Source: Psammoneis japonica
Taxonomy: Eukaryota
Reading direction: 5' to 3'
Length of the DNA: 57,696 bases
NCBI GenBank assembly: GCA_008632985.1
Contig: QPGO01000157.1
Location: 124,001 to 181,696, forward strand
In this document: in pieces, positions 29,880 to 50,519 of the stretch
How positions within the stretch are numbered: the stretch's first letter is position 1
Layout: every line of letters begins with the position of its first letter
Notes under the pieces: model-generated
The model's input: the letters and a program-made list of their open reading frames with translations, nothing else
Told to the model about the DNA's origin: nothing
Databases searched by the model: none
Made by a program: the position numbers and the translations under genes

Positions 29880-32800
29880 CATATTTTCCACGATGTGGTC
29901 CTCTGAGTATGCTCCTGTTGACGCGGAATTCGTTTCGGAACCCAAAAAGCAGGTGGACTTCTCAACCACCATCCACGAGCACATCGAAAGAAGTTGATTT
30001 CTGCACCCATGTTTTCTTTCGTGGACGAGCGTGACCAGTCGTCGGAATGTCAGGGCAAATCTACGGGGAAGAAGCGAGCTGGAAGAAAGAAAAGGCCGCT
30101 CGTGTCGTCGGCTGGCAACAAAGAATAAGCCCCAGGTACAGTCTGCTTGGGCATCGCCCGAGCAAAAAGCCAGTGAAAAGTAAAGAATACTGTAGGTAGC
30201 AAGCAGCCTGTATGTCTTTTGGGAGCTCACACTAATTTGTCGATATGGCACCATATGACAGTACTCTCTAGAGTCAGCATCAGGTATGTCCTGCACCAAC
30301 TTCTTGTGGAACGATAATTGAGTTTCTTCTGAGTATCCCAGTGAGTGAGCGTGTCTGGGCTCTTTTATCTCCTCGTCGATGCTTTCTATTTCTATCCTTC
30401 TTTCACCCAGCATCAAAACAAGACCCTTTAGCTGGGAAACATCCTGTCCGTAGCGCCTAAGTCCGCCACAACCTTGACGGCGAGGAGGTTCAAATCGAAA
30501 GTATTGTACAGTTCCACTGGGGCAAGAGCGCTCGCTGCACCGCTCCACCTTCAAAGACAGAAATGCATCAACCCCGGAATGGTTCTCAATTGCGTACGGC
30601 AGGGTGGTAGTCAGAGAGCGTGTCGAACTCAATACCTTCTCTCTTGCTTTTGGTGAAATCTTTTCTGCCGTACCATCAGCGGAAGCCAAGGAAAAGACTG
30701 ACCACATGCGATTTGCAGCGCCAGTGCCATCAAGGAATTGCTCTGAGAACGACACGTGACACGGGAAAGATTCGATGTCCACAGTAGTGGACATTCTTTG
30801 AGAGTTAAATCTCCGACTGACGCCTCGAGCGCTGTTCATTGTGATTTCCCACGGTTTCACCAAAAGTTGTTGCCACATATTCGTGGAAGTAATAGTCTGC
30901 TAGAACGGATGTATTGACATGACACTCAAAGGTAACTTGGTGTGTGAATCTAGCCTGAGGAACCACGCCGCTCCTGACCTTAGCACAGGCCACAAAGTTC
31001 CTAGCTTTTGTTCTGAACAGGGCTTCATCCATACCTTGAAGATCATTCATGAAGGCTATCGTTGTTTCTGGCATGGTCATATTTTACGTCCAAACTTAGC
31101 AAAGCCGTAGTCTTTCGGGAACCGGGCGATGTCACCGAAGACAACGCCACCGCAGACTGCTGAGTATGCAACACCTTCCTGTCACTCGAAGCTTCGATGC
31201 CAGCATTAGATTCAAGTTGTAGCGCCAGTCGTTCAATTCGTGATGCCTCTTGCTCGCTGATGTGGACAACTTGCTCGTCTTCGGCTTCCGACCCGAGAGA
31301 TTGTGAAAACCCGGTGTGCTGTTGTGCTGTCCCTGCGCCGATTGGTGGAAGTTCCACGTCGATAGCCATTGCGATCGGCGTTTCTACCATCGCCCTTCCA
31401 GCCTTATCTTGCAGCGACACCTCTGAAAGCGAGAGACTTGCGGCTGAAGAGCACCCGGACCAGGAGGAGAATGGTACCGTACGTTGAGGTCTCCAGCGTG
31501 GACGGTAAGGTGTTCTGGAGAGTAAGCGGTTGTGGTGGAATAAGGTCGGCGCCGATGGCTCTTATGGCAAAAAAAATCCCCCCCCCCCCCACTTACAGAA
31601 CTAGCAATCTCAATCGCAGCATCTTTTGCCAATGAAGCAGCTTCCGCAAAAAGCGCGCTCAAAATGCCTTCCGTAACATGTTCAACCAGCGTCAATACCT
31701 GCGAATGTATAGACCAGTCTCATGGGTGATAGGTTGATCTTCGCGCAAGCGTCGCAGGTATCGACACCCTCGTCCTGAAGTGACAATGATATGATTGCTT
31801 GACGCCCTATGCTGTATTGAACAGAGAGCAATCTAGTTGACTGGTGCGGGGCGAGTCCAAGAAGAGTTTTGTACGATTGCCGCGTTTTCCCATTAGTGAG
31901 TGCCTCTTTTCGAACATCCCCAAGCTCAAGCGAGGCCTTCGTATTGCTCTGCTCGTCGTTCTCTGAGGAATGAAAACTCACTTTTGCGTCGGATATTATA
32001 TTGTCATCTCAAAAAGCGGTAGATCGTCTATGACAGAATTCAAGGATATCTCGAAGTGCCTTATCTCGGCCTTCAAAACAAAGTGCCGAGCTTTCGCCTT
32101 CGAGATCGAAAACTCATCAGACTCGAAGCTTTTTATGAGAGATTTCTCGTCGAGGCAAAGGTAATGGTGACTCAATCGCAGACAGCCGCGGCGACACCTC
32201 GGCGAGCGACAGGCGCTTCTGTGGCAGAGAGAATTTTGACCGTACCGCTGTCACTGCCTGGATTGCTTTTGGATTCCACTGAACATATAAACTCGAAAAT
32301 GTAGCATCGATAAAATTAAGTGCCACGGTTTCATTCTCTTTCCGAAATTGTGCCGCCAGTGGATCAAGCAACTCGATTGAATCAGAAAAGCTTCTTCCGG
32401 GCATTATAAAAGTAATGTTAACAAATTCAGTAGAGCCAGAGAAACTGTCATCAAAGGTACCAAGCTTCTCTAATTCCGCAAGAACATTGTACTCGTCATT
32501 TTCCGCAAATGACGCTGCTGGTTTTGGGAGGTTTGAATGAGCCCGCAGTCGCTGCTCCCATGGAAAGTCACTCGATAACCGGTCCAAAGTCCAAAACCAT
32601 CCCGTTCTCAGGCGGCAAGAAGCACCTCGATCGCCCGTCAAAGACGCAGACGATGCCGTCATCAGTGACGGCACATATTGATAGCAGGTGCAACGCGATA
32701 GCGAAGTGCAGAACAATAAGGTCGTAGAGACCACCTTCAAGTCCTGTGGTTTTCACTCATGGTTGCTGCTTTCGAAGTGTCTTGAAACCAGCAGACGACC

Positions 32801-34330
32801 TTTTCAATATAGAGCTTGTCACTGATGTTGAACTCGCATCGCGGCCTCCGTCATGTTCGACCTCATCGAGAATGGACATACATCTCGCCATGTACTGAGC
32901 AAAGATGCGGTTCTTTTGACCTGAGTTGGAGATATACGAAGCGAAACCGTAGGTAGAACGCCAAACGTACAGATACGGGGGCGCTCGTCATTGGGAGCTG
33001 TTTCTACCCCCATTTTGAGATTGAGTGATTATGTCATAGAGTCATCCCATTTCAACTGACCCGTTTTCCCTGTAACAAACATGAGATAAGACACCACTAG
33101 TTCGCTATAATCCTTGAGAGGATCCGGTTTCGTAGTGTTTCGCTTTGGTTGACTTGAGAACAATTCCATAACACTTTGCGGCGGCTCAATCTTGCCGTAT
33201 TTCAAGCTGAAGTGCCCCAAATCAAAGACAAGTACATCGGTAGTCGGCTCAACACAACTTTTTTGAAGGATGATGATGGGGGGCGAAGACGTCACAAATA
33301 AATCATCCAGGTAGTTTTCTTCTTCGTTTTACTTTTCCAGGCATCTGCAAATAATGCAGTAGATAGCTGGTCCGACACTGCAGCACTGGCTGCCCTCGCG
33401 GCTGCGGCGGTTTCGTCAACAATGTCCACCGCCCCAGCCTCCATAGTGTGTGACCGGCGTCATAAAAGAGATCAACCGAACCACTCAGACATTTCTAAGA
33501 GTGGGTTCTGACAAAATTGTTGCGACGCGGATACCGATACGGTATTGGAAAGCAAGAAGAAGGCTTTTACATCCTTCAAAAGTACCGATGAGGCCACCAT
33601 CGGAAAGAATCAATTGTTGGTCACCGGTGTTCGACTATTCCAAGTGAACGTTGAAAGCACCAGTGGTTGAAGCCCCCTCCTTCTGTGACGAGTACCGCAA
33701 GCTACGTATGACAGTAGGGAACAAGTTCTTGAGGGTAGCCTTGTCGTGAACCATGAGGCTTGAGAGACAAAGCTGCATCAAATGTGGTTCTCACCGCGCC
33801 CATATCCAATGACGCCAAAGGTCTCATCCCACGTGTTATCAAGTCGAAGGCACCCAGGGTAAACTTGATTTCGTAAATCTTTGAATTTGTTAAGACTTCC
33901 GATTCAGAGGTTTGCTCGAGACTAAATGCTTCGAGCTCTTTCATTTCTTCTACTGCCAAGAATATTGGAGGATCTTCCTCGTCCGGTGACACATCTTCGC
34001 CCTTTGACGCCCCGAAAAACGACGGCAGATACGACTTTTTGGCGCCCTATTCTGAAACCTTATTCGTTGACTCTTGTTTTTTTCTTTTCTCGTTCGACTT
34101 GTGCATCACCAATGTTCCGCCATGTCATTGCCTTCCACAGAGATAGCCCGAACTTGTTCTGTGGTAATCACGGTCTCCACTTCTTCTATCGACAAAAGGC
34201 TTCAACCAAGGACAAGTCTCATTATGAGCATGGCGCTTGTAAAGGGGTATATACTTCTTGCGTTTTTGAAATGCTGTGTGAAACTCGACCCAAGAGCGCC
34301 TACCTTATGCTATAACGTATGATATTCCGT
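29880..34330 (-). pseudogene. VPS13: Internal fragment of VPS13-family lipid transfer protein, many stops/frameshifts
   Basis: Pieces 'RRSWVEF..FQKRKKYIPLYKR' (~34290-34235), 'IKFTLGAFDL', 'SPPIIILQKSC...LVFDLGHF' and 'FIDATFSSLYVQWNPKAI' resemble VPS13 N-terminal and repeat-region motifs. No start or C-terminal domains seen. Confidence 0.65.
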
Positions 34331-34438
34331 TGAGAATAGACGACAAAGTACTACCTCAGAGACGATCGTATTGTTGAAATCGGCGAAACGCCATTGTCCA
34401 TCCGTGATCCGTGATGAAGTAAAGAGTAAAGTACAGTA

Positions 34439-34467
34439 AAGACTGGCCAGATAGAAAGGCACACCCG
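34439..34467 (+). repeat. Left terminal inverted repeat (29 bp)
   Basis: aagactggccagatagaaaggcacacccg, the exact reverse complement of 39920-39948. Confidence 0.95.
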
Positions 34468-34593
34468 CGCGCTCTCGAGCTCTCAAACTTTGTTTCGAGA
34501 AAAACGCGTTGAAAAGAATTTTGACCAAATATAAACATTTCAAGTACGGACATATAAGATATTATAAATTATTCTGATACTTTATAGACAGCA

Positions 34594-36746
34594 TTACGTA
34601 ATGTTCGTATTCCTGTCTGTAAGAGGCCCACTTGCTTCGGCAGTTTTCTTTTTCTTAGCGTTCCGTGCCTTCTGCTCGTCGCTCTCCGACTGCTTTTGCT
34701 TCCGCTTCTCTCTCTTGCTTTTTGCAACTCGATTGAGCACGTCGTCTCCAGGATGAGGACACATCTCGTCTTTGTCTTCCTTGTCCAGAAGCGGCCGATG
34801 CTTCGTGTAAAGCTCCACCTTCTTGACATCCTTGATCCCTGGAGCTGTTGAGGCATGTGGTCTTGTTGTTTGAAGTCTTGCTTTCCTGTCATCCATTGAT
34901 TCACTCTTCCTCTTTTTGAGATCCTCACTAACTTCTGGCTCGCCGTCCGCTGCTTTCATTGTTGCTGCTGTAGGATTCGAAGAGTCTTTCACTTCAAAGC
35001 AGTGGTGCTTCGCAACTGCACTGTGCTTCTTGCAGCTCTGATCAAAATGAGCTCCACATCCCAAAAAATCCTCCTCCTTTGCTTCAACAACAGTGACACA
35101 CTCAGAAGTGTCCAATGCTTTCAACAGTTTGCTGAAGGTGCCAATGTTCTTGTCACGGTGAGTTTGCTTCAGACTGTTGAAGAGTCTGTCACATGCATTC
35201 TTGGTGTGCCCTTTCACTGAAAATGTGATGCAAACTTCTTTGTAGCATCCTTGTTCCACCAGGCAGGAAGCGAGTCTCAAAACAGCATTGTTCTTGTTTT
35301 GCCCGATGCAGTTGTCAAAAATCAGTGCAAGCTTTCCGCCCGGACCCTTTTCAATGTCCAACAACCCACCATCGTGTGAGTGTTTCATCATGAGGGGATG
35401 CAACATTGTCACCTCCCTTTTTGGCCAGTGCCCTCGTGGCAGACGTGCGCGTGCAATGAATCCTTGCACTCACTTTCCGTCTCCTTTTTCCCCGCAGGAT
35501 CCGCCATTCCAAAGCAATTGACAGTCAAAGGTGAGGAGCAGTGCGTCTCCCCTGGCTGGTCGGCTCCAAAATGAGGCAACCCCCCATTTTGACAACAGCC
35601 ACCGATCCTCACTCGAGTCCGCTGACCGTGTGGCGTGTTTGCAATTGCGTGTTGCATTGCTTCCACAATGCACTTGCTGACTAGTTTTCGTTGCTTTTGA
35701 GCCCACTCGACATGTTCAGCCGCTTCCAGCATCTCTTTTTCCTGGGCCTCAATCTCTGCCATGTGCTCCTCATTGTCATCTTCATCGTCGTCATCATTGT
35801 TGTCTTCATCGTCACTCTCACCACCCTCATTTTCTTTCTCCTTTCTCGCTTTCATTTTGAAGCCATTCGCGAATTTGTGACAGTCATCGCAGATGTCCCG
35901 AGTTGGTCTTCTCACAACAATGTTGGGACACTTGTCCTTCCAAAAAGTGCAAAACTGTGCCCAGGAGCATGTCTTTTGTTGGGTTTTACCTGCAATTGGT
36001 GCGGGTTTGAGAAATTTGCTGCGGTCGTTTGACTTGAGCCTCCATCCATTGTCTTCTCCGCATCGTTTGTGCAATCCGCGCTTTTTCATGGTGGGAGGTA
36101 AATCGAACGTGTCTTCATCTCTTAAGCCGACTCCTGTTTCTTCTCCAACCAGTCTTGTTGCACGTGGTTCTGAAAGCTCTTTCATTTCCTCAAAGAACGA
36201 ATGCATCGCCGTGTAAATTTCGGGTGCTAACGTCTTGTTGGCAGATTGACCTTTCCTGCCTTTAAGACCATGTGATGGAAGCATGTCATTCTCTGCATGA
36301 GACTTCGCTCTCTTCCAAAACTCACAGTTTTTGCCGAGTGATGCGAGGAGAGCATGGGAGCAGATGAGACTGTTCTCGACAGTCACTGCGTTCTCATTGT
36401 CAGATTGCAACAGCGGCAACACAAAACAGCAACAGTCACCACTGTTTTTCTTGACAAAACAAGAACACTTGATCCAGGATGATAAAGCAGTGTAAGTTTC
36501 TTCGTAGCTTGGCCTTTCAAAGTGCACCAGGCAGTTGCCAAGCATCTTTGCGGTTCGGACGTCGTTGCTCTCCATCAACTGTGATCTTGGCTTCTTTGGA
36601 CACTCGCATTTCGATGGTTTCTTTTTGTTCACATCAATGCAATGCTCATGAAATGTTGGTGAATCATTGGGACTTGAAAGCCAATCGTAGAACTTTTCCA
36701 CAGCTTCATCGTCCTTGATGTCTTTCGTTGGTTTCGGCCGATTCAT
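34594..36746 (-). pseudogene. Sola-like DDD transposase (mutated; frameshifts at ~35395-35420)
   Basis: Motifs PTRDICDDC, (D>G)CCQNGGLPHFG..QPGET..SPL, HEG..KGGDNVAS (restored by removing two 1-nt insertions), IFDNCIGQNKNN and F.VKGHTKNACDRLF. These match the DNCxxQNKN / GHT...D.xF signature of Sola-type transposases. Confidence 0.8.
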
Positions 36747-36921
36747 CTCGCTGCGCCATTTTTTGTCGGATTTTTTCGAAAGAGAGATGGCAAAGGATTT
36801 CAAAATTGAATTGAGAACGAAGGCATTAAGAAAGAACATGCTTTTGTGTTTAATTAAGATGCAAACACATGATTGAACACAGCTGCATGATTTTCCCCGT
36901 GCACAAATTCCCGCCAAGCTT

Positions 36922-36961
36922 CAACGGTCAAAACCATTGCAACAAAATTGTTTGACCGTTG
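36922..36961. repeat. 11-bp perfect inverted repeat with 18-bp spacer between the two transposon genes
   Basis: caacggtcaaa (36922-36932) ... tttgaccgttg (36951-36961). Confidence 0.85.
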
Positions 36962-37438
36962 TTTTTGTCAATGGCTTGCAATTCGTTTAGAAAGCATTGT
37001 TGGCTTGCGTTGAACACATCATGCGAAAGCGGAGATCAAGAGCTTTCGGTCGCGCTGCACCGGTTGACAGGAACAACCACCGCTGATTGGGGGGCGCGCT
37101 TCCCCCTGACGTCACGGGTTGACCGCGCCAACCGGGGGGAGTCCTCAGTGGTTCCTGCCCGCAGGAGGCCGGCGCCGGAACCACCCCCGGAGCCGGTTCC
37201 CGGACAGGCCTGTGGTTGGTGAAGATGAGAACCTTCAGAACAGGACAAGACATAAAATCCACTTGTCGAAATGTTCTTTCTTCCCACTCGAATGTCAACA
37301 TGATTCGAAACGACTCCACTTGTCGAACGCCATGAGTGAGCGTTTGATTTCAAAAACCTCTTTTCTTTTGACAGTGAGGTGGGTGCACCCCAAAAGACGA
37401 TCCCTCGAGGCTATCATGATGAGCAGAACAGACCCAAG

Positions 37439-39490
37439 ATGGCGTCTCAGGTCTCCATGGGAGACTTGTTGGCCCAAACCATCACACCACCCAAGGTGGA
37501 TGGCACTTGTGTCACTGAGTGGAATGCATGCAAAAGGTGGGTGGATGAATCGCCGGCTCTGTCGGGGCCGCCTTACTTGACGCGAGACCAGGTCGACCGG
37601 CACTTCTTGGAGGCAGTGTCGAAACGAGACGTCACGCCAAAGTCGGCCAAGCGTGTCATTTGGTCACTGCAGCATCACTCATCTTGGGAGGAGCACAAAC
37701 CTCCCAATCCAAAATTCGTTGTGAGATCAGAGGCAGTTGACGTCGCTCTGGTGGCACACAAGGAGCGATGCGCCCAAAATTTGCTCACTGCGTTTGCATC
37801 AGCTCATGACAAGCTGCCTGCGGATGCTCTGTCTCGTGTTGCTGAGGATGAGACATTGAATTACATCATTCAATCTGCTGCTTGGAAGAACTTGGCAGTG
37901 TCATGGACCAGCTGCAGCCAGACCATGATGCGAGGCGATCAGCTCCGACTTGCACGCTATGCGGATGTTCACTGTGACGAAACTCACGGCCCCGGCAACC
38001 CAAACGAATCGGTCGCACGTCCAATGACAGCTCTGATTGAGCAACGGTTTGCAGGCAAACGAGGTTCCCACAAAAAAAGAGTTGCAGGCATGTGGCGGCA
38101 CCGCGACTGGAAGCGATGCGGAACCGGTGTGAACGCCGCCGTCGCCGCCTGCAGGTTTCACAGCGATGCGGAAATCCACTTCATGCATCAACATGACGGT
38201 TTCCCGGACTGGCACAAGCATGAACCAGTGGGTTGGAAAACATTAGACACGCACCGCAAGGCACACCAACGGGTGTACAGGGCAACAAAGACGTCGTGGG
38301 CAAAGTGCACTCACCTTCGCACCGCCGGCATCGATTCTAGCAACATGGGCGGGGCGACCAAGCAAAATGTTGAGCAGCAGACGAAACATGGAAAAGATTC
38401 ACTTGACGTCTCACACTTGCCTGAGATCCCTCCACAAGTGCAGTTGATTGCCGCCGGGTTCTCTAAGCTGCATGGGGAGAAGGTTTGCTACGTCCCTCGT
38501 ACCAACATGTCCTTCGGCGAACTAGTTCCCGGAAAACCAAACGTTGCTGACACTGAGTTGGCAGAGATGACATGGCCAAGACTGCCTGCATGGAAACAGC
38601 AACACAATGTTGGTCGTAAGTGGCCATGCGGTACAAACTTTTTGTGTGGGACCTTGCCTTTTTTCGCTCGCGTCCTGTGCCAAGACGGTGTCCACTGGGT
38701 CACGGAGTGTCCGCAGCACGAAGCATCCCGTCTGTTGGTTCGTGTTTTTGGCGGCAGGTGCATTGAGTGGGCAAGGGACAGGCTTCAAGAGTTGGCTGAT
38801 ATGGACACTGCAGAAGAAGACGAGATTCAAAATCTGAACATTGCTGCGCAGACAGCTTTCTCCTCGGTTCGTACCGATGCACAGGTTCTGGTTGGGAAAA
38901 TGGATCGACTGTCAGCAGAAGTTCAAAATTTCACTGACATTGTTCTGAGGCAAAACCAGCAGCAACAACAGCAGCAACGTGAGCAGATGCAGAGCATCAG
39001 AATGGCTGTGAGTAGTCGGAATGCGATTCAGACACGTACCGTATTGGATTCGAATCCAACTCGCTCGCGCATCGTTCAGCATCTGCCTCCGCCGCCGTCA
39101 GGTGCTGCTCAACCATGCTTTCCAAAAGAAATGCCAAAGACAATGACCAAATTGTTGGAGGAGCACCTGGAGTTTCAGTTGGAACAGTACAAAGGAGTGA
39201 GCAAAAAGAATTGGCAGGGTGGGGTCACTATGCAGCTCAGTCGTCGTTCATACCTGTATGGCTTGATTCTGAAACGGTCTGAGCGAGTGCGTGGTTTTTC
39301 AGACCGTGCCGCTGCACTCCAGGAATCTGCAAGGCTGATTGACGAGGAGAGAGGTACTATGTCACTCAGACAATTGTATGATACTTCCAAGGCTCAATCT
39401 AGTGATACCAAGCGCCGTAAGGTCGACCGCTCCCAAGGACCGAAGAAAAGATCGCGTCGCATCCAACCTCTCCCATCGGAAGATGTGTGA
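37439..39490 (+). CDS. Crypton-type (CryptonF/Ndc10-like) tyrosine recombinase with GCR1_C-like C-terminal domain; probable catalytic Tyr->His
   Basis: Open 683-aa frame. MMRGD (catalytic R), G.WRHRDWKRCGTG, THLR (H-x-R), TKH...SHLPEIP...AAGF (Crypton consensus Y-L-x-x-L-P...AGF). C-terminal 'PKTMTKLLEEH...W....SRRSYLY' resembles GCR1_C. Confidence 0.8.
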   Translation: MASQVSMGDLLAQTITPPKVDGTCVTEWNACKRWVDESPALSGPPYLTRDQVDRHFLEAVSKRDVTPKSAKRVIWSLQHHSSWEEHKPPNPKFVVRSEAVDVALVAHKERCAQNLLTAFASAHDKLPADALSRVAEDETLNYIIQSAAWKNLAVSWTSCSQTMMRGDQLRLARYADVHCDETHGPGNPNESVARPMTALIEQRFAGKRGSHKKRVAGMWRHRDWKRCGTGVNAAVAACRFHSDAEIHFMHQHDGFPDWHKHEPVGWKTLDTHRKAHQRVYRATKTSWAKCTHLRTAGIDSSNMGGATKQNVEQQTKHGKDSLDVSHLPEIPPQVQLIAAGFSKLHGEKVCYVPRTNMSFGELVPGKPNVADTELAEMTWPRLPAWKQQHNVGRKWPCGTNFLCGTLPFFARVLCQDGVHWVTECPQHEASRLLVRVFGGRCIEWARDRLQELADMDTAEEDEIQNLNIAAQTAFSSVRTDAQVLVGKMDRLSAEVQNFTDIVLRQNQQQQQQQREQMQSIRMAVSSRNAIQTRTVLDSNPTRSRIVQHLPPPPSGAAQPCFPKEMPKTMTKLLEEHLEFQLEQYKGVSKKNWQGGVTMQLSRRSYLYGLILKRSERVRGFSDRAAALQESARLIDEERGTMSLRQLYDTSKAQSSDTKRRKVDRSQGPKKRSRRIQPLPSEDV

Positions 39491-39919
39491 GGTTGAAGGA
39501 GGTCGAGTGTTTTTTGTGTTTTTGTAACTCTATAGCCCCTGCATTTTTTGTTTTCAATTTTTTCCATCCTCCCGTGTAGACCCCCAGTGAAAAATGTACC
39601 AGAAGAAAGGCTAAAAGCCGGTCAAGCCGCTGCTTTTGTTGTCTCACAACATTTAACGACGCGTCATCGGATCACTTAAGTGTCAGGGGTCACGTGAAAC
39701 TGTCGGACATTTTTTGATCGTGACTGAAAAGTCATCAATAAATGTTCTTTCATCGTCTATAATTGAATGATGTCCTGCCCCTAAGTAGAAAGGGCCTGCG
39801 TAGGTTTTGGTACTGATGTACGCGGTAACCGGCGCTCACCGAGGCCCTAACCCCCAGGCTCCAGAGAGCCTGATCGGTGTCCATACCTCAAAATCGACCA
39901 TACGAGCTATTTCGAGCTC

Positions 39920-39948
39920 CGGGTGTGCCTTTCTATCTGGCCAGTCTT
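39920..39948 (-). repeat. Right terminal inverted repeat (29 bp)
   Basis: cgggtgtgcctttctatctggccagtctt. Confidence 0.95.
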
Positions 39949-40217
39949 ATAGGGCCTAACGATGGGTCGAAGTAGTCGTAGGATGGAAGAGATAGGATGG
40001 ACAGACAGAACCTGCGCGCCATAATTGACAATGACATCCTCCTGACGTTTTGTTGACAGTTTTTCCATGGAATCGATGTGACGTGTTATTATTCATACAG
40101 CCCACATCGGAGGCGGAATGTTGGCTTCAACTTCCCGCACTCGTGCTACGTTGCTCGTTTTATTGATTGGGTGTTGTTCAATGTGCATCAAAACAAACAC
40201 GCTTGTACGTGGAGGAC

Positions 40218-41447
40218 ATGACTATCAAGAAAACGGGGCTCATTTTTTTCTTATCCATCACTGCTGCGAGATCTTCATTCCAACTTTCGACTACTCCTCA
40301 TCCACTAGAATCATCTCGTCGTGTATCACCCAATCTGCAACAAATGAAAATGACGAGCGACGACAACCAAAGAAACATCAAGGAGAAAGTTTATCCCCCG
40401 TCTCGTTTCGTTATCGACGATGATAACAAGAAATGGCGTCTCTGTGCCGGATGCGCAGTTCTCAACTCGAACAATGAATTGTTGGTCGGTGAACGTGTCA
40501 CGGTCAAGGATGCATGGCAGGCGCCTCAGGGAGGTGTGGATGATGCGTCAGAGTACGAAGATAGAGAAACAGTGTTTGAGGCAGCGTGTCGAGAGTTGTA
40601 CGAAGAAATGGGCTTGATCAGTGGCACTCATGCTGTTCCAGTAGACTTGCACGTCAAACCTGTTAGATACGAGACAGAGGGAACGTCAAGCTGGCTGACC
40701 AAGGCTGGTTTCGCTGGACAAGAGCTGCATTGGAACGTCTTTCGTTGTATCGATGGACCGGGTGACAGTGACCCGCGCCTCATGTGTTCTTTGAGCGGCG
40801 AGAATGGAGAAGAAGCTGAATTTTCAAACGTGAAATGGGCGTCGTTGGATTGGGTAGTTGAAAACATGTGGCCAAACAAACGTGCCGCCTACGAAAGACT
40901 CCGGGATACGCTGGAACCCACAATTCTAGAGTGGAACCGTAGATGCGCCTCGCTGGATTTTTCAGGGAAATGGGCCCGTGACTCGTCACAGTGTACGGGA
41001 GTAGCGGAAGCTTTAGTAGCAAGGGGATTGTCTCATGATGATGCGCAGGACGCTGCAAAGAACCCATACATTCAATCATTTTCAAGAGAATCAGCAGAAT
41101 CGACAACTTGGAAAATTACATCCTTTCATGTGGACGGTATATCGATACGTCGAGTACTAGAGTATCAAGTTGGGTCCTGGAAAGAACCTTTTCCTGCTGG
41201 ATCTGTGATATTAGGAAGCAACCCCCGCCCAGCTATGATCAATCGTCGAACGGCCTTTGTGGCAGAACCCCGAGCAGACAGTGGTATTGCACATTCAACT
41301 GTGTCCCATGTTCCAAATGGAATCGAGGAGTCAAGGAGATTCCTCAAGAACGGAAGCTTAATACTTGAACGAATATTCTGGCCCGTTGACACCGGCTTGC
41401 CGGTAGTGTCGACGGAGGTATTTCTTCGGTATGATCACATTATTTAG
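40218..41447 (+). CDS. Nudix hydrolase (RppH/Ap4A-hydrolase-like) with N-terminal signal and extra C-terminal domain
   Basis: 'WQAPQGGVDD...ETVFEAACRELYEEMGL' Nudix box, plus 'AGFAGQELHW' and 'EFSNVKW...KRAAYE' typical of RppH-like enzymes. Confidence 0.88.
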   Translation: MTIKKTGLIFFLSITAARSSFQLSTTPHPLESSRRVSPNLQQMKMTSDDNQRNIKEKVYPPSRFVIDDDNKKWRLCAGCAVLNSNNELLVGERVTVKDAWQAPQGGVDDASEYEDRETVFEAACRELYEEMGLISGTHAVPVDLHVKPVRYETEGTSSWLTKAGFAGQELHWNVFRCIDGPGDSDPRLMCSLSGENGEEAEFSNVKWASLDWVVENMWPNKRAAYERLRDTLEPTILEWNRRCASLDFSGKWARDSSQCTGVAEALVARGLSHDDAQDAAKNPYIQSFSRESAESTTWKITSFHVDGISIRRVLEYQVGSWKEPFPAGSVILGSNPRPAMINRRTAFVAEPRADSGIAHSTVSHVPNGIEESRRFLKNGSLILERIFWPVDTGLPVVSTEVFLRYDHII

Positions 41448-41505
41448 AGACTAATACTAGATGCTACTAGAAAGAAGAACTTAGTATAATCAATGCAATC
41501 TGTAA

Positions 41506-42990
41506 TCAAATGGAGAGCATTCCATCTTGTCCACCCTTGTCGTATACGTCAAGTCTCGTGACTGGTGAAATCTGATCCATCGTTTCTAACAAGTCTTGTC
41601 CTTTGTCGTACATTCCGAGGGAGCCGCCTGTATGCCAAAAGAGAATATTCTTTCCGCGAAAGGATTCGTCCAAGACTTGCGTCATGAAGTGAAACATGGC
41701 TTTTCCACTGTAGACGGGATCCAACACAATGCCGGTTTCGAGAGCAAATCGCGTGCAAAAGTTCAGTTCTTCCGCCGTGCTTGAAGCATATCCAAGGCCC
41801 TTGCCTTGATGGACAGTCATGTGTTGGCGAATAAAGCTCACAGCCGACATTGATGAGTGCTTGAATCCCATGTCGTTGGCGATTTCTGCAACGTAATTGT
41901 AAAAGTAATCCGGGTCGTCGCAGACGCCAACAGCATGAGCATGTGGCGCTTCTTTGACATCATCTCCCTTTTTAGAAAGACCAAGTCCGAGGGCTATTCC
42001 CGCTGCTGTACCCCCACTACCGCAAGCAAAGACAACATGATCGAGCGACTTTGTTTCTTCACTATTCCACTGCGTCATGAGTTCTTCAACGCCGTTGATG
42101 TATCCCCAACTGCCGAGACCATTGGAACCTCCCACAGGAATCGGATATGGATTCTGTTTTTCTCCTTTTTCAATTTGTTGCACAATCTTTCAACAAGACC
42201 CTTTGATCCGACCCTTCCGTACTAGTATAATGTGTAGGTATTTTCCAGGAAGCAATGTAAGAAAGAAAAGAGAAAGGTATGAACAGTAGTTAGAACCCAC
42301 GTTGCTTCCGAATGAACCATGTACAATGGTAAACACCTATCAACATACCTCCCCTGGTGTACAGGTATAAATCTGGCTTCCCACCATGCGATCAAATAAA
42401 ATGTTGCCTGTGAAGCCAAAGTTCTCCTCTTCACCAGTACAAACTGAATTGGCCCGTTTCGTTCGAAGAATCAAGTGTGGCTCGAGTCCCACCATGCGGC
42501 AGGCTGCAGCTGTAGCACGGCAGTGATTTGATTGCTCGCCACCAATGGTAACCACAGAGTCCGCGTTCTTTTCCAAAGCATGTGCCAGTAGAAACTCCAA
42601 TTTTCGAATCTTGTTCCCGCCCAATTCAACACCTCCCGTCATGTCGTCTCGTTTGATAAAGAGCGACACGTTCAAATCCACAAGTCCCTGCAGTATTGAC
42701 GGCTCGTCGTTCTTGTCTGTTATTTGTGGCGATGGTTTTACTTCATAAAGAGGCGTGGGGAGATTTGCCAAACTCAGTCTGCGCTGAGGGACATTTAACA
42801 AGACGTCCTTGGCCCATTTGGGTGCTTTGTATGTACGAGTGGTGGTTGGAACGGAGGCGAGTGCCTGAATGGTTTTCTGACTTCCGGAGCTCATCATGAC
42901 GATTAGTAAATTCCACAGCAATAGTACTGTAGGCTGTAATATGTTTGTGAGAGAGTTCAGTGATGTGCTAGGCCGCTGAAATACCGTCAT
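41506..42990 (-). CDS. D-cysteine desulfhydrase / ACC deaminase family PLP enzyme, 2 exons
   Basis: [57 protein letters not shown] and FWHTGG. Intron 42222-42348. A 1-nt frameshift lies in an A-run near 42160. Confidence 0.9.
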
Positions 42991-43149
42991 CGACGTCGTT
43001 CTAGTTACTGTAGAGAACGTTCATCTATAGCTATTTGCCTCTACTCTTCACTCTTCCGCCGACATCAGCGACTGTCGGTCTGTCGTCCCTGCCACATCCA
43101 GCTCGATCCAAAGCAATGCCACAAAAATGGCACTGCGCAGTGCCTCCTC

Positions 43150-45890
43150 TATAAAGAGTTTGTTGGCAGCTCTTCAGCCCACACCCAACAAGCTCATCTC
43201 ACAGCTGGGGTGACTCCTGTGTGTGTCTTTGACAAGGCAAGGCATCCAATGAAGAAGAGAGTGTTGTGCAGCGAGGAGCGTGGGGGGACCACGACCACAG
43301 GGGCAGAAAGGCAGAGCAGGCAACCTCTCATTTCTGGAGCTGGCCAACTCAACTCCAGCCATTGCAAAGAGCAAGAGAGACCTGTGTGCAAAAATCCTGT
43401 CCCAAATGTTGTTGCTTGCTTCTTGTGCTGCAAAAGAGTGGGGGTGCTTCTTGGCAACAGAGTGTCTGTGCTTTGAATGTGCTCAATTTGAGGCTCAGTG
43501 CCAGCTCATGTCAAGTTGACGACAGACAGCTGCAGACAAGGCCAGAGAGGCAAAGAAAAGTGATCCAAGTTGGATGGCAATGAACAAAAATCTCTGCACT
43601 TGCAGTTCTTGATTGTTGAGCAGCATGTGAGTGAGCCGTGAGAGCAGTGCTGTCTGCTTTTTGACAAGTGCCACGACATTCATGGAGAGGGGATGATGTG
43701 TGGGCTCTCTTGCACGTGCCTCCTCTCATGGCACCACAGGACATCAGGTGCAAGCAACATGCTCATGGGAAGTTGGGCATGCATTCAAGCATTTGGGTGT
43801 TTGCGCTGCCACCAAAATCTGCATCATCCAAGGAGGGCACTTTTTCTTGAGAGCAACTCCTCAAACTGCAGCTGAGTGCAGACAAGAACCCTCTTTTCTT
43901 GCCACTGAGCTTGAGATTTTGCGGCTCCTTTTGTCAGAGGATTTTTTTTGCTCTTTAGACCAAGAAAATCTGCAGCCTGAAGGATGAGACATGGGCTCAA
44001 TTTGCTCAGCTGCACTGAAAAGCTGGCAGCCCTGCAGTCAGTCCAGCACAGCGCAAAGGAGGGGAAGGAAGAGGAGGGCTGCCCAGACAATTGTCTGTTC
44101 AGGGCACTGAGCATGGGAGGGATGTTGCACAACAGGGTTGGAGAAATTTTTTGAGACTCCAAGTTGCAGCGCCAAACTGGCAGCACAGCTCAAGAAGCAC
44201 CGCTGCCCCCTCTTTCTGGCATGAGGAGACTGACAAGAGCTGTGCACTTGTGGGAGTGGGAGACAACGACACAAGGCGAGCATCATCTCTGCAGTCAAGC
44301 ATTGCTGTTTTTTGATGTTGTCATGACATTGAATGGCTTTGGACTGCTGCCCATCTAATTTGTTTTGATGAGCTTTTCCAGATGATGAGCTGGCAGACAG
44401 ACAATGTCTGTTTTGGGATCCCCTGTCCTCCTTCCTCAACAACAAACACACTTGGTGACAGGACAGTTGTTGGCACAGATGCAGACCATCCTTTTGGGGT
44501 CATTGTGCCAAAGGCCTCCATGATGTCTTCTCCTCAACAGACTGACTCTCCTGACAGTTGAACCCACAAATTCAATGCAAGCATTGCACCCCCAAACTTT
44601 TCTCAAATGTTCATTGAGCTGTTCAAGATTGTGCTGTGAGACATCTGCAGCACCAAGAGCACATCAACCAGTTTGTGGCAAAGAGAGAGGAGCCTGAACA
44701 AAAACAGGTTGTCAGAGTCTTGCTCTTTTTAGTCAAAGAAGCCAAGGCCCTTGTGATGAGCAAGTTGTGACTTTCCCATGATGAACAGAGCAATTTTGGT
44801 CAAACAGCAGACAGCAGTTGATGGCAAAGCTTTCAGAGGCAGCATGTTGCCAATTTTGCCTGTGATTGAGTGCTCAAAAACAAACTTGAAAAACTCAAGA
44901 ACATGGTCAACAAACCAATTCTTGCCCCGCTGGTCCTGTTCAAAGATCCCCCCAGGAGTCGTGTTGTTTGTGTTCTCATTGCTGAAGAAGTGGGTGGAAG
45001 ATTGCAAAACTTCAGTGCATGTGAGCATTGAGTGGCATGTTTCAAAGTGCATGCCTCTGACACACATCACAGTGATGGGGTCTTCTTTGCTCTCATTGCT
45101 CACGACAACAGGCACGCTGTCCTTTTGCAAATTCCTTCAAGGAGCTTGCTGACATCAAGTGGAGTTGTGTGTTTGAGATGAGCCCATCAATGCAAGAAGA
45201 CAAAAACATGTCTTGATCTGTGTCAAGGTTCAGTGCATGAAGGGTGGAACTAATGCAACACCACAGGCAGCAAAGTTTTGCTTGGGTGTCTAAAGAAAAA
45301 ACTGTGTGAGAGGCCTCAAAAAGCTGTGGGGAGAACTTCAGAACATTTGCCATGTGTTGGAGCAACAAAAGAAGAAGCTCACATTTCTTGTGATCTTCTT
45401 GCTGTGCTTTGGCTTGTGTGGTGCTCAAGAAAACATTCCAGAAACATTTCAGCTCTCCTCCACAGCAGCTGAGCAGTGGCGAAGAGCACCCCCTTTGCCT
45501 CTCCCTGCTTTTTGGAGTGTTTTTGGCAGCACTGTTTTGTCTCATTTGCACTGTGGCAGAGGACAAGGAAAAGGCAAGAAGAGTTCACCACATCTTGCAT
45601 GGGCACACCACCATGGCCCTTTTTCAAAACAAAGTGCCCATGATCTTGCAAGCAGCTGGCAGCTCAAAGAGGAGGCACAAAGGGGTCACTCTCCTGGCAG
45701 CCTGGCTTGCGCAGAAAAGTTGCCTCTGGCTGGGCAGAGGAGGAGACACCAGCCCCTGCAACTTTGTTGCTTCTTGCTGCCACAAAGCTGGCAGTGGAGA
45801 GAGACAGAGTGCAAAGAGACAGTGGAACAATGCCCACATGTCGAGGAAGCATGCATGTGTTGGGAGTTGGCAACGGCCACGGAAAAGAAT
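43150..45890. mobile_element. Second TpA/CpG-depleted degenerate repeat block
   Basis: Same composition as 5640-19300 (very few TA or CG; Cys/His-rich spurious ORFs). Family not identifiable. Confidence 0.6.
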
Positions 45891-46016
45891 GGCTCATTAC
45901 CCGAATAAAGCGGAGGCCGAGTCGTCGTCATTATTCATGCTGTACATGCGATGGCGAGCGGCGAGCGGCGAGCGTTCTTAAGGAAGTGAACGACGTGCAG
46001 CGAAAACAGCAGCGAC

Positions 46017-46627
46017 ATGGCGACAGGGTTGAGTTTCCCCTTGTTGAGACGGTGTTGCTTTCCATTAGTGCTGCAACTTGTCTTGTTGGCGCTGGGCACG
46101 TCATTCACATTTAGACAGCACATCCACCACTGCCTCCAAATTCAATTCACGACTTCCAACAATCTCGTCTGTTTTCTTCTCAAATCGACTACCTTGTTGA
46201 TGTACGAGGCGCTGTTCAAGACGCTGGTTTTGAGAAGGAATGGAAAGAGTCAGCTGCTTTGCTTTCGGAATCGCTTGGTCTTGAATTGGATGCAGCTGAG
46301 GCATGCTTAGCTGAAACATGGAAGTGGAAGAGCTTGGCCATCTGCAAGTCAAAGATCGCGAAGAAGTTCATCAAAACAATCGCTCCTGATAGCAAAGCCG
46401 TGCAGCAAGCCTTAGAATGGCTGAAAAACGGACCGTTGGCTCTGACCAATGAACAAGTAAAGGATTCTATTGCCGACAACCCTGAAGCTTATCTTCTGAA
46501 CCCCGAAAAGACCTACCATGAAGCGCTGAAAGCCGCACCAGAGGAATATTCAAGTCCTGACAAGTTCCGTGATTTGTTGCTGGAAAGATCCATCGGTACT
46601 AGCATGTACATACAATTGCATCGATGA
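46017..46627 (+). pseudogene. Helical protein fragment of unknown function
   Basis: Protein-like ORF 46259-46627 (…QALEWLKNGPLALTNEQVKDSIADNPEAYLLNPEKTY…) with no clean 5' end. It lies next to the mutated block. Confidence 0.35.
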
Positions 46628-47232
46628 TGGATGTGCGTCAGAGTGCGGCAATTGCTGGGTCTCGTACAAGAATCGTGTCTAGAGTCTAGACTGTGCAGCG
46701 CTCCGGAGGATCAAACGTGTCAACTACTGTCTAGAAAACGAAGTAGTCTAGTGCACTCTCAAGGGAGTCAGTCACATTAATTTTGCCTGTGATATGGATC
46801 TACCGGCACTATACTTATCACATACTGTAGCTTTAAAAAGACAGAATCAGCTTGGAAAACAAAAAATAGCTATGCTGTTCCAGACTTTGTGAGCAGCGTC
46901 AAACCTGGAGAAGTAAATAGTTACACAAAACTGCTAAAATTCACGTGTTCATATCTATGATTACCGTCATTGCATTGGATTGCTTCGGTAGGAACAGAAC
47001 CAGGGTCGGCTTGGCATCGAAGAATGAATTATTGTATTATATCAGTGAACGAATATATTTTCATGATGCTCATTTTTTTCTCTGTCATCTTCCAAAACTG
47101 CGCAGCGCCACAACGAAGACACCTTATTATTATGTTTACGATTGAGCATTGAGACCGACATTAGGTACGTTAGAAGCAGCAGCAACAGCCAAAAAGAGCG
47201 GCGACGGTGATACCATAGATTTTTCACCAGTC

Positions 47233-48087
47233 ATGCGCAGCAGAAAGGATCGCTTGGATCGTCCATCAGGTGCGGTGCTACCGCTGCTGTTGCGTGACAA
47301 GTTGAAGCAGCAACTACCGGAAACGGGAACAACAGCAGCGGCAAGTGCTCACAATGAGAAGATGCAGCTGGTGCCTCCTAGGAATGATGAAAAAGATGTG
47401 GTCTTCACGGCGGTTGAGTTGGAGGAGCGGTTGAATCAGGCTTCTTCTGCAATCATGGACATTCAGCGGCAATTGACTAAAGGAGAAGAATTGTATTACG
47501 AAGAAACGAATCATCACGGGAATTTGTTTCGGGGCTGGGATGCCTTTGTCGATGCAAAGGACACGGGATCACACAATAGTGGAATGCCAGGCGTGACCAA
47601 TCATCATCGTCGTATTCCTGTTGATAACCGATGGTTCTCTTCGAGCTGCACCAGTGCAATCAAGACGAAACCACTGCTTCAGTCGTTGTCAAGCCGTTGC
47701 ACAAGCAAGGGAATCTTGTCAACAACGGTGCCTTTGCCTCTGCCTCAGACCGATACGGGTAGGCCTCCACTTCCAAGTGATGCTGCAAGTTCTGCAGTCA
47801 TATCTGACGCTCCGACATCCACCCCGGTTTCCGATGAGGTGGTTGCAGCTATAGAAAGTACAGAGACAGAACCAAAAAAGGAAGAAGGTCTTCAACAGAA
47901 AAGTAAGGAATCTAACGAGAAGTCGCTACCGACAGATACGGAAAGAGTAACACCTGCCACCGAAAGCGATACCGGCGGGGGAAAGAATGTGAAAGGAGAC
48001 GCCATACCGGTACCCAGTGACTCCAAACCACCAGGCCTCACACCACCTGCTAGAAGAACAACTCGTAAACGCAAAGCTGGGGATTGA
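47233..48087 (+). CDS. EAF6: NuA4 histone acetyltransferase subunit Eaf6/MEAF6-like
   Basis: 'IQRQLTKGEELYYEETNHHGNLFRGWDAF...DNRWFSSS' matches the Eaf6 motif E..YLEET...GN..RGW....R.FS.SS. Basic NLS-like tail (RRTTRKRK). Confidence 0.8.
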   Translation: MRSRKDRLDRPSGAVLPLLLRDKLKQQLPETGTTAAASAHNEKMQLVPPRNDEKDVVFTAVELEERLNQASSAIMDIQRQLTKGEELYYEETNHHGNLFRGWDAFVDAKDTGSHNSGMPGVTNHHRRIPVDNRWFSSSCTSAIKTKPLLQSLSSRCTSKGILSTTVPLPLPQTDTGRPPLPSDAASSAVISDAPTSTPVSDEVVAAIESTETEPKKEEGLQQKSKESNEKSLPTDTERVTPATESDTGGGKNVKGDAIPVPSDSKPPGLTPPARRTTRKRKAGD

Positions 48088-48777
48088 ATAGAGCAGGGCT
48101 GTGTAGCGTTTTATCTACCCCGCGAAGAATTGTCTCGCTTGTGGGGTTTATAAAATTGAGATCCGCATTTTGTGATATAATGGCAAATCTGCAAGAGAAG
48201 GGTGCTATTGAGTCCTATTCGGGTATGAGTACGCCTTCCCTGTGCTAGAAGTAGCCCTGTATGACGTAGTTGGTGTGTGAGTTCGCTTATGTGATTGCAT
48301 CCCAGGCTGTCAATCGCCCTAAAGCATCTGGCTTTTCGTGCTGGCTTTATCAAGTGAGAGGCAGGTTCACATCTCACATCCAACCTTGGACACTGTATCA
48401 TACTATTGAATCTGCCTCTGATAGGGTCCTAGCTTGCTCAGACTCTTTACCCCTACAGTACGAGTGCAGCTCTACCAGCAATAAAGGCTATGCGAATGCT
48501 ATCTCGCTCTACCGGTATCTAGGGCCCTACTCGACTCTCTAGGGCCTACTCTCTCTCTAGAGCTACCTAGCTAGGCCGTCGATCCGTCCGTCGACTGTGC
48601 ACTGATTGCTGACGGACAAAAAAGAAATGAGAACCCTGGTGACGTGTGATCCCAAATCACATCAACACGATCAGATCTTTCTCTCAAGAGTCAAGAGGAA
48701 GGTGACACCAACACAATGTTCGTTGCAGCTGTTATTACATTACTGTATTTCCCATCCCCATAAACAACCATACAACC

Positions 48778-49528
48778 ATGATTTGTGTCTACTTGCTTCT
48801 CGCGATGACTCCGGCTTTGGTGCAATCGGCTGCGTTTGTCAGCCCAACTCATCAATGCCGCTCCAGCATAGGAAGCACCCTGCTTGCTGCCAGCGAAGCT
48901 GAAGAGCATCTGAAGGACATGTCCAAGGCATGGCCGACCTCCAGAAGAAAGAAAAGGAAATCGAACGCTCTCCCGACGAAGTAAGTTGCATTAACTATTC
49001 CCACTTTTGAAGTTCAAGATGTCGCCCCCCTGTACGTAAAAAGTACCCTCATACCTATTTACTGGGTTTTGGATTTTGCAGAACGCAGCCTATGAGTTGG
49101 CCGAGGAGATGCTCGAGACTGCGATTGAGTTTACTCACACCAAAGAAGTGATCGAAAAGGAGCATGCAGCGTCTGCTCACGAACTCCTCGAAAAAACTAT
49201 GAAGCAAGAGGCGGCTCTTGAAGATATCGAGATGGAGGCACATCATGATGCAGAAGATGCGGATCAGATATTGGACAACTACAAGCAGGTTCAAATTCCC
49301 GAAGACTTGGAGAAGCGCCGTGAAATGGCTGTGGCTGACCTTTCTCACAACATTGAGAATTATGTTGAGTCTCGACTCCAGCAGGCCAAAGAGGTGGAAC
49401 AGCACGCGAGGGAAGAAGAACAAGAAGCACAAAGTACCCTGAAGGATTTAGAAACGAAGGAAGCCGCGTTGAAGGCTACACTCGATGAACTCAAGACGCT
49501 CAAACCCAAAGCGCACCTGGAGGAGTGA
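48778..49528 (+). CDS. Putative plastid-targeted coiled-coil protein, 2 exons
   Basis: MICVYLLLAMTPALVQSAAF-VSP bipartite-type presequence. GT-AG intron 48981-49081. One missing G near 48933 would restore W-ADLQKKEKEIERSPDE/NAAYELAEE. Confidence 0.7.
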
Positions 49529-49760
49529 GTCAGCTCGATGCTATATACATATTTTAGCCTTTAAATTAAGCTAATGAAGGAACGTGAGTTCCAAGTTGGT
49601 CCATAACTTGTGGTTCGCTCATCCCGCAACCCGCAATACCTCGGACTGTATTGTTGATTACCTCTAGAGGACTGTGCTATAATAGTGCCAGCTGCGATTT
49701 TGCATCGATATCGCAACTTGGAACACCAGATGACTCATCCGCTGTGAGTCGCTAGCTTTT

Positions 49761-50519
49761 TCAGTTCGATTTCTTGCTGTTTGAATTCTGCGGTGGCACA
49801 AAGATGATCCCAGCCTTTTCCACAATTCGTCGCGTATCACTGTACACCCCGAGAATCGAAATGAGCGTAATGACGAATGCCATGACTCTTATTCGGTCTG
49901 GACACTTGGATGTGACCATGATAACAACCTGCACAAGGAACGAGTACATGGAGAAGAGAAATGTCTGGAAGCCGCGGTATCGCTCTTCTGCTGTGCTCTT
50001 GAAGAACTGAGCAAAAGCCTCATCGTTACCGAGACCTACTGCTGTTCTTCCGTACATTGTCATGAGTGAAAACAAGAGAGTCGAGTGAATTCCTGACACG
50101 GTTCCTATTGTGCCGGCAACAAGAAAGACAATAATACCAAAAAGCTCCACGTATGAACCTGTCCGCCAGAGCTCTTCAAAGTCACGGTGGGTAAAGACGT
50201 CGAAGCATGCAATAGACGTGGCAATCGTCAATGCTGATACGACTGCATAAACTTCAATTCCATCGAGACGGACAGTGGTGCGGTCAATTCCCAAGTTTTC
50301 TTCGCCCTGTCCGTGCTCCCTAATCTGTGCTTCGACGAGCTTTTCAATAGAGTCATTAAGCTGAACAAGAGACTCCCGAGTCGTCTCTTGATTCTCTTTC
50401 AAGCTGACACTTAGAGATTTCAATGCGCTTGCTAGAGACTCTTCATTACTTGAACAACCTTTGGTATCGTTATTGTGAAACATGTTGCGGTCGTCGCCCA
50501 TCATGGGGTGGCTACGCAT
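49761..50519 (-). CDS. Multi-pass (about 4 TM) membrane protein of unknown function
   Basis: Intact 252-aa ORF with an N-terminal coiled segment followed by four hydrophobic stretches. Confidence 0.75.
   Translation of the reverse strand: MRSHPMMGDDRNMFHNNDTKGCSSNEESLASALKSLSVSLKENQETTRESLVQLNDSIEKLVEAQIREHGQGEENLGIDRTTVRLDGIEVYAVVSALTIATSIACFDVFTHRDFEELWRTGSYVELFGIIVFLVAGTIGTVSGIHSTLLFSLMTMYGRTAVGLGNDEAFAQFFKSTAEERYRGFQTFLFSMYSFLVQVVIMVTSKCPDRIRVMAFVITLISILGVYSDTRRIVEKAGIIFVPPQNSNSKKSN

Follow-up and report, generated by a model that had tools for sequence, protein, structure and literature searches.

The closest described counterpart of the element studied here, which occupies positions 34439-39948 of a 57,696-nucleotide stretch of Psammoneis japonica DNA (contig QPGO01000157.1; this whole stretch is called the window below), is MarCry-1_FO from Fusarium oxysporum. 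Kojima and Jurka (2011, PMC3212892) describe MarCry-1_FO as an element with 16-bp terminal inverted repeats (TIRs), TA duplications and a Mariner transposase; its four copies are more than 97% alike, indicating that it moves as a unit. According to the same paper, Cryptons have no TIRs and are flanked by short direct repeats of 4-6 bp, and the CryptonS elements, found in oomycetes and a diatom, have repeats of 5-6 bp, mostly TATGG. The element in the window resembles MarCry-1_FO in having a Crypton-type recombinase gene and a DDE/D transposase gene within one TIR pair, the transposase and the TIRs defining the mobile unit. It differs in its transposase, which is of the DUF7869 kind, in that only a single composite copy was encountered and copies without the recombinase exist, and in that both genes are predicted to be inactivated. 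A literature search found no DDE-plus-Crypton composite besides MarCry-1_FO and the ciliate Tec elements; the first-pass annotation of the window had named a Mariner-Crypton hybrid in Fusarium and the ciliate Tec elements as precedents, correctly to judge by PMC3212892.

The reading we lean towards, and hold to be somewhat probable, is that a Crypton-like element lies nested in a DDD (three-aspartate) TIR transposon, at a polymorphic site and with an interior eroded at TpA steps. So read, the locus is an ordinary nested transposon made of parts of known kinds, and a new two-enzyme family is not supported. Part of the evidence came from read-derived contigs of three runs of a single public sample containing this DNA, placed on positions 33500-41000 at 85% likeness. 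Run X1 gave 491 contigs on the stretch, with 156, 132, 115 and 88 of them in the identity bands of 99% and above, 95-99%, 90-95% and under 90%, so the element belongs to a multicopy, diverged family. Two contigs skipped the recombinase part: one passed from 37048 (with 7 additional letters) to 39880 and the other from 37052 (with 3 additional letters) to the same position, omitting 2831 and 2827 bases, respectively. Both joints represent one junction in two versions, two transitions apart; recombinase-less transposase copies thus exist in at least two sequence variants. The skipped unit (Table 1) is preceded by GGTCG and begins with CGCTG at its left edge, ends with GATCG at its right edge and is followed there by GTGTC. 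With the unit removed, a 2686-bp single-gene TIR element remains, with non-coding ends of 155 and 378 bp. The GC content of the unit is 0.527, as against 0.463 in the outer, transposase-bearing element, and neither inverted repeats nor a clear core site could be recognized convincingly at its ends. The first-pass annotation had named two signs of a nested insertion, namely copies with these TIRs but without the recombinase, and the recombinase segment elsewhere with ends of its own; the former were found as the contig joints just described, and for the latter there is a hint.

If the elements are indeed nested, the outer one would be a 2.69-kb cut-and-paste transposon with 29-bp TIRs and one DUF7869-family transposase gene, and a 2.82-kb Crypton-like element would have entered the non-coding stretch that separates the start codon of the transposase from the right TIR. 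Integration would probably have occurred by recombination at a short TCG-containing site, which now flanks the nested unit, and the interior would have been struck by TpA to TpG/CpA hypermutation, after the nesting or already before it. Several observations weigh against this account. A single short contig supports each joint without the recombinase, the shorter side having 21-27 letters, and both contigs come from one sample; the edges of the nested unit likewise rest on these two short contigs. The TCG repeat has 3 bp and is shorter than the 4-6 bp reported for Cryptons in PMC3212892, and the recombinase unit was not seen at another locus with its own flanks. A contig without the whole 5.5 kb (see below) fits the pair having moved as one unit, and the TpA depletion forms a single tract over both parts. 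Finally, a deletion between the TCG microhomologies gives the same junction, so that the direction of the event, which we take to be an insertion, is not proven.

A search for the TIR motif with up to three mismatches returned two sites in the whole window, two matches were obtained in 0 of 100 dinucleotide-preserving shuffles, and blastn lengthened the pair to 36 nt (94%); the perfect 29-bp TIRs of the first-pass annotation were therefore borne out. Between them lie a minus-strand coding region (34594-36917) and a divergent plus-strand open reading frame (ORF) of 703 aa (37379-39490). When the first ATGs fitting the homologues were chosen (36746 on the minus strand and 37439 on the plus strand), the spacer between the two genes was 692 bp, in agreement with the two divergent genes and the spacer of about 690 bp noted before. 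The short subterminal DNA, given earlier as about 130 bp on the left and about 430 bp on the right, also held, with 155 and 458 bp when the TIRs are counted in. An assembly artefact, in which unrelated repeats were misjoined and the TIRs belong to something else, finds some support in the homopolymer indel differences between assembly and read contigs at 35394 and 35418, and in the fact that the best run contains 0.59 of the sampled words of the stretch. We give it hardly any credence: read contigs cover 30 of the 30 bins of the stretch, a 10.5-kb contig extends rightwards from 39957 across the flank, where 1 of 1044 bases differs, the TIRs are symmetric at both ends, and the contig of the empty site begins exactly at the left TIR edge.

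In that contig the base preceding the left TIR (34438) is followed, after 15 intervening letters, by 39957, and the whole 5.5 kb is missing. The first five of the 15 letters equal window positions 39952-39956 and the other ten resemble a small haplotype indel. The left edge of the joint coincides with the outermost base of the left TIR. An allele or site without the whole 5.5 kb appears to be present in the sample, i.e., another chromosome copy lacks the element, and from this one contig the insertion looks polymorphic. The word depth of the empty-site contig was 24.8, about half of the 57.9 of the 10.5-kb right-flank contig, as expected for a hemizygous insertion, contig depth being a rough guide only. 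This joint, like the two without the recombinase, comes from a single contig, and across the three the shorter side measures 21-30 letters. No 4-bp or 8-bp target-site duplication flanks the TIRs (AGTA ... ATAG); the single site and contig hint at a duplication of 3 bp with one mismatch (GTA/ATA), or of TA plus one base.

A whole unit that is present or absent would also be seen in a true composite of the MarCry-1_FO type, i.e., a fixed ancestral nesting in which the DDD transposase moves the pair via the TIRs, the recombinase is a passenger or helper and the recombinase-less copies are internal deletions. We consider such a composite possible though unlikely. It is favoured by the one contig without the entire 5.5-kb unit, whose edge lies exactly at the TIR and which makes the TIR-bounded unit the thing present or absent here; by TIRs that stayed perfect despite a heavily mutated interior; by a TpA erosion continuous over both genes; and by the precedent itself (four copies, 16-bp TIRs and TA duplications; PMC3212892). 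The presence or absence is, however, equally explained by the outer element having arrived first and the Crypton later, and copies without the recombinase come in two sequence variants and already make up a complete element of canonical form. Neither the window nor the other scanned windows yielded a second composite. Within the 57.7-kb window, tblastn and blastn gave no second copy of the element or of either gene, only two chance-level matches (E 0.041 and 0.36), and when the recombinase, the N-terminal part of the transposase and the left 162 nt were compared by sequence with the other scanned windows, each was found in 0 of them.

The pairing was also absent from metagenome loci. At least 8 such loci encode recombinase relatives, all distant (22-30% identity), and none of the 8 examined among the matches listed had a transposase nearby at tblastn E <= 1e-3, with six DUF7869 transposases and the two transposase ORFs of the window as queries. 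The DNA available on the expected transposase side amounted to 7.9 kb upstream in L002, 2.0 kb in L007 and 1.4 kb in L003, and the set was made of loci other than the contigs of the closest recombinase relatives, P0001 and P0002. The whole-unit presence or absence at the site nevertheless hints at a working composite, a diatom DDD (DUF7869) transposon that would have captured a Crypton and would now move both as one TIR-bounded unit; this seems doubtful to us. If true, MarCry-1_FO would be joined by a second DDE-plus-Crypton composite, the first from a host that is not a fungus; movement as a unit would take the MarCry precedent to a different transposase family and a different eukaryotic kingdom, and intact copies could use the recombinase for a second movement route or for resolving transposition products.

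Returning to the nested elements and their enzymes, the minus-strand gene is split in the assembly into two overlapping ORFs, 35409-36917 (502 aa) and 34594-35469 (291 aa), the latter of which matched Pfam DUF7869 (E 1.3e-18). Its relatives are single proteins of 700-850 aa (11 matches in one search, 18 in another), nearly all with DUF7869. A conserved motif crosses all three frames in order, with two 1-base shifts in homopolymer runs within it. Read contigs lacked one base at 35394 with a summed depth of 207.9 out of 207.9 (2 contigs) and one base at 35418 with 219.1 out of 256.2 (2 contigs). Removal of the two bases gave a continuous 716-aa frame that aligned end to end with P0164 (39% over 712) and P0003 (35% over 745). 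Because both extra bases are absent from read contigs, an uninterrupted transposase frame exists in the sample, either in this copy (an assembly error) or in other copies. An intron in place of the frameshifts was considered and rejected, since the motif runs in order through three frames and the read contigs drop exactly two bases.

The core of the predicted protein was examined through P0003, the closest full-length relative, whose AlphaFold model was built from 15 sequences (mean predicted local distance difference test score, pLDDT, 73.8). Foldseek gave no match to this model at E <= 1e-3, but its top rows were all RNase H-like nucleases or transposases. VIA-align on the Foldseek list scored Z 9.5 to retroviral integrase cores (root-mean-square deviation 2.8, 128 residues), Z 8.3-8.5 to Mos1 and Metnase, and Z 8.2 to IstA; these scores are middling and uniform in kind, and all the matches cover residues 387-603 of the model. 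Of three acidic residues, D430 (on strand 1 of the model) and D528 (following strand 4) are shared by all 15 sequences, and D571, at the beginning of the helix that follows strand 5, by 14 of them. Near-invariant D, D and D at the triad positions of an RNase H-like fold support a DDD transposase, and on the strength of this model the minus-strand gene would encode one with an RNase H-like core. With the Pfam and NCBIfam scans relaxed to E <= 10, nothing besides DUF7869 was found for the transposase family, and no mention of DUF7869 was found in the papers searched. A likely role can now be assigned to this Pfam family: it would belong to the catalytic core of a DDD transposase of TIR elements.

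The placement of this transposase among eukaryotic superfamilies was compared by description. Sola, reportedly characterized by Bao, Jurka and Kapitonov in 2009, is said to have a DDD triad and a 4-bp duplication, and Zator is said by the same authors to be related to TP36. The window element resembles Sola, so described, in its predicted DDD triad, in being a TIR element and in its single large transposase with no Pfam family until DUF7869; it differs in that the 4-bp duplication was not seen, a length of 2-3 bp being suggested by the single site compared. Were the duplication one of 3 bp (GTA/ATA), it would be in keeping with Zator and bacterial TP36 (PF07592). In one Atlas cluster of DUF7869 proteins, 11% of the members carry PF07592, which points faintly to Zator/TP36; no match to PF07592 or ISAzo13 was obtained at E <= 10 among 10 proteins searched against Pfam and 11 against NCBIfam.

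Two further observations concern transposase sequences. At 36676 three contigs match the window rightwards and continue with unrelated letters leftwards; they represent a copy that has been rearranged or truncated, with its break 70 nt into the coding region of the transposase. The viral contigs searched with the transposase alignment gave no relative, and the prokaryote contigs gave a single locus, L009, with a 58-aa fragment and no recombinase in the 3.2 kb there, which makes it uninformative on the pairing. The fragment opens a contig of a metagenome-assembled genome labelled bacterial (L009:1-177) and is 72% identical to the eukaryotic DUF7869 transposase P0008, the match stopping where the fragment ends; it is possibly a eukaryotic contaminant or a chimera.

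The plus-strand gene is, according to its predicted structure and its relatives, a member of a Crypton-type tyrosine recombinase family. The window protein had no Pfam match at E <= 1 except one at chance level and 0 matches to PDB sequences at E <= 10. Fourteen of the 20 aligned family members, on the other hand, matched Pfam NDC10_II, the best with E 2.4e-16. An exhaustive search placed 407 representatives in the family at E <= 1e-3, 189 at 1e-10 and 65 at 1e-30; many are full-length (about 700 aa), and most of the full-length ones stand alone. The predicted recombinase model (mean pLDDT 76.8) matched the Ndc10 N-terminal domain (4aco, E 4.4e-5) and Cre (5u91/5crx, E 5e-4 to 1e-3) in Foldseek, with Flp, IntI and XerH ranking lower; all 6 chains at E <= 1e-3 were Ndc10 or Cre-type. 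The protein thus shares the fold of the Ndc10/Cbf2 N-terminal domain and of Cre/Flp (PDB 4aco, 6gys, 5u91, 5crx, 1m6x), unlike which it shows only 9-13% identity to them and an H-x-R spacing in its family. Ndc10 is a domesticated, non-catalytic protein.

The catalytic columns were well kept among the relatives covering them: R185 in 96 of 102, H312 in 116 of 117, R314 in 111 of 117, H337 in 116 of 116 and Y346 in 111 of 112. Nine residues separate H337 from Y346, the same distance as that from the second His/Trp to the nucleophile in Cre, XerD and lambda Int. A conserved K-x-x-H-x-R block occupies residues 309-314, in which the H312-x-R314 spacing is one residue tighter than the H-x-x-R of Cre, Flp and XerD, and a second conserved block lies towards the C-terminus at residues ~580-680. 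The 407 representatives above document an extensive lineage of Ndc10-like tyrosine recombinases, about 700 aa long, with an unusual H-x-R spacing. In the window itself codon 346 (38414-38416) is CAC and encodes His, whereas Tyr stands there in 19 of 19 aligned relatives and in the covering relatives as given above. No relative was found in the viral contigs searched with the recombinase alignment.

In domain content the recombinase seems to fit better with CryptonS than with CryptonF, to judge from sequence: the C-terminal DNA-binding domain GCR1_C of CryptonF was found in 0 of 20 family members at E <= 0.01, and the C-terminal block is conserved. Like CryptonS as portrayed in PMC3212892, the unit has a stramenopile or diatom-like host, no GCR1_C and a conserved C-terminal region, and its putative ends show short direct repeats and no TIRs. 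Unlike CryptonS, with which it was compared by description only, it is flanked by TCG (GGTCG/GATCG with a mismatch) and has no TATGG at either edge, and its recombinase family matches NDC10_II, which the same source links to CryptonF-derived genes.

Several features of the recombinase part were observed besides. Contigs skip 1010 bases at 38460-39471 and 289 bases at 38080-38370 within the gene, so internally deleted copies of the recombinase unit are also in the sample. Shortly before the recombinase ATG there is a perfect 13-nt direct repeat whose copies (37258-37270 and 37315-37327) are 57 bp apart, and two imperfect 19-21-nt repeats occur in direct and inverted register at 37058-37078 and 37113-37135; these repeats could be promoter or recombinase-binding sites. 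At 37198-37205, in the GC-rich DNA upstream of the gene, other copies have an additional 7-nt unit (CCCGGAC or CCCGGAT), a difference in tandem-repeat length. We considered reading free Crypton copies from the depth (1300-2174 over the recombinase, 250-930 over the transposase and 58 in the right flank) and dropped it, summed word depth not being copy number; the higher depth over the recombinase part hints that the family is multicopy and diverged.

The decay of both genes goes with a loss of TpA steps, nearly complete in a tract covering both of them (Table 1). Outside the tract the observed/expected ratio of TpA was 0.5-0.8 at the element ends and 0.4-0.8 in the flanking genes. CpG decay was considered as the main cause of the TG/CA differences between copies and was rejected, as the observed/expected ratio inside the element was 0.72-0.85 for CpG vs 0.14-0.30 for TpA. 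The effect was most visible at conserved columns, defined as those with a residue common to at least 70% of the relatives. In the recombinase, 7 of 9 conserved Tyr columns were changed in the window (4 to Cys, 3 to His), as compared with 29 of 126 other columns (Fisher p = 0.0014); in the transposase all 9 were changed (5 Cys, 3 His, 1 Gly), as compared with 28 of 156 others (p = 6e-7). Both genes together thus had Cys or His at 15 of 18 conserved Tyr columns, and Tyr to Cys or His is the effect of TA to TG or CA on TAY codons.

Such a process cannot create TAA or TAG, and long open frames therefore survive it; the open 703-aa recombinase frame is for this reason no evidence of function. Hypermutation of this kind would remove Tyr codons without introducing stops, leaving the recombinase frame open and the nucleophile gone; the transposase has lost every conserved Tyr and the first catalytic Asp. 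The codon of that Asp (35598-35600) is GGC, Gly, in the window. Judged by these residues (nucleophile Tyr to His, first catalytic Asp to Gly), both genes are predicted to be inactivated in this copy. The first-pass annotation was accordingly right about the kind of enzyme on both strands, a DDD transposase (DUF7869 family, RNase H-like core, invariant D, D and D) and a Crypton tyrosine recombinase (Ndc10/Cre fold, NDC10_II in 14 of 20 members); the layout of its two-gene anatomy is real, but the transposase is frameshifted twice in the assembly and each gene has lost a catalytic residue.

A comparable process has been described for Bigelowiella natans, where, according to Mettrop et al. (bioRxiv 10.64898/2026.01.13.699255), a TpA-restricted hypermutation affects integrated viral DNA. 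The two cases are alike in that TpA is lost to TpG/CpA and that the loss is confined to foreign or repeated DNA. They differ in the organism, diatom-like here, and in the target, a transposon and not viral DNA. Open reading frames are a poor sign of function in this genome, as the TpA process strips tyrosines, including the nucleophile of the recombinase.

The inactivated residues bear directly on the mechanism put forward in the first-pass annotation, namely a new composite family whose recombinase would act like TnpI of Tn4430 in resolving cointegrates, or would excise or circularise the element. The divergent layout inside one TIR pair is real, and beyond this layout nothing favours cooperation in the window itself; Tec1/Tec2 of Euplotes do pair a DDE transposase with a tyrosine recombinase, according to PMC3212892. 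With His for the nucleophile Tyr and Gly for the first catalytic Asp, however, this copy could not act, and the transposase element exists without the recombinase. The predicted transposase core resembles cut-and-paste enzymes and integrases, and the pair did not recur in the metagenome loci (0 of 8) or in the viral contig searches. No joint turning back on itself, as a circle junction would, was seen among the contigs, which show such junctions poorly. We therefore regard cooperation between the two enzymes as very improbable and the proposed family as not supported. Our result is mostly a correction: an apparent two-enzyme transposon class is better explained as one transposon inside another, the nested arrangement preferred above.

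Table 1. Coordinates of the features of the nested element in the window
Feature	Positions	Strand	Remarks
Possible left copy of a 3-bp target-site duplication (GTA)	34436..34438		right copy would be ATA, 39949-39951; from the empty-site comparison, one site and one contig
Left TIR, 29 nt	34439..34467	+	100% complementary to the right TIR
DUF7869 gene, predicted DDD transposase	34594..36746	-	extra bases at 35394 and 35418; first catalytic Asp codon reads Gly
Tract with TpA nearly erased	35001..39000		observed/expected 0.03-0.21 per 500 bp; covers both genes
Transposase upstream region (promoter/5' untranslated region)	36747..37052	-	in recombinase-less copies runs directly into 39877-39948
TCG direct repeat, left edge of the nested unit	37050..37052		partner at 39874-39876; 5 bp with one transition, GGTCG/GATCG
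Recombinase unit, read as a nested Crypton-like element	37053..39876	+	2824 bp (386 bp + 2052-bp coding sequence + 386 bp); exact stretch skipped
Tyrosine-recombinase-like gene	37439..39490	+	frame open from 37379; residue numbers follow that frame
Right subterminal DNA of the outer transposon, nested unit to right TIR	39877..39919		joints resume at 39880
Right TIR, 29 nt	39920..39948	-	complementarity, motif count and blastn

The surroundings of the element are ordinary eukaryotic genes (TPR, SET, metallophosphoesterase, NuA4 and NUDIX). The NUDIX gene begins about 220 bp to the right of the element, and the nested pair is intergenic, upstream of this gene. In the left flank (33700-34438) the read contigs differ from the assembly at many sites and have loose ends at 34352-34399, and the summed depth there is 170-270, compared with 58 to the right of the element, which seems to have inserted beside or inside another repeat on its left. 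Farther to the right, positions 43501-45000 showed observed/expected ratios per 500 bp of 0.03 for TpA and 0.08-0.20 for CpG, far more extreme than the surrounding genes, and this segment is probably another eroded repeat. On the other side, positions 1-29800 had an overall TpA observed/expected ratio of 0.34, as compared with 0.5-0.6 in 30000-33700 and 41448-53800, and parts of them may hold further eroded repeats.

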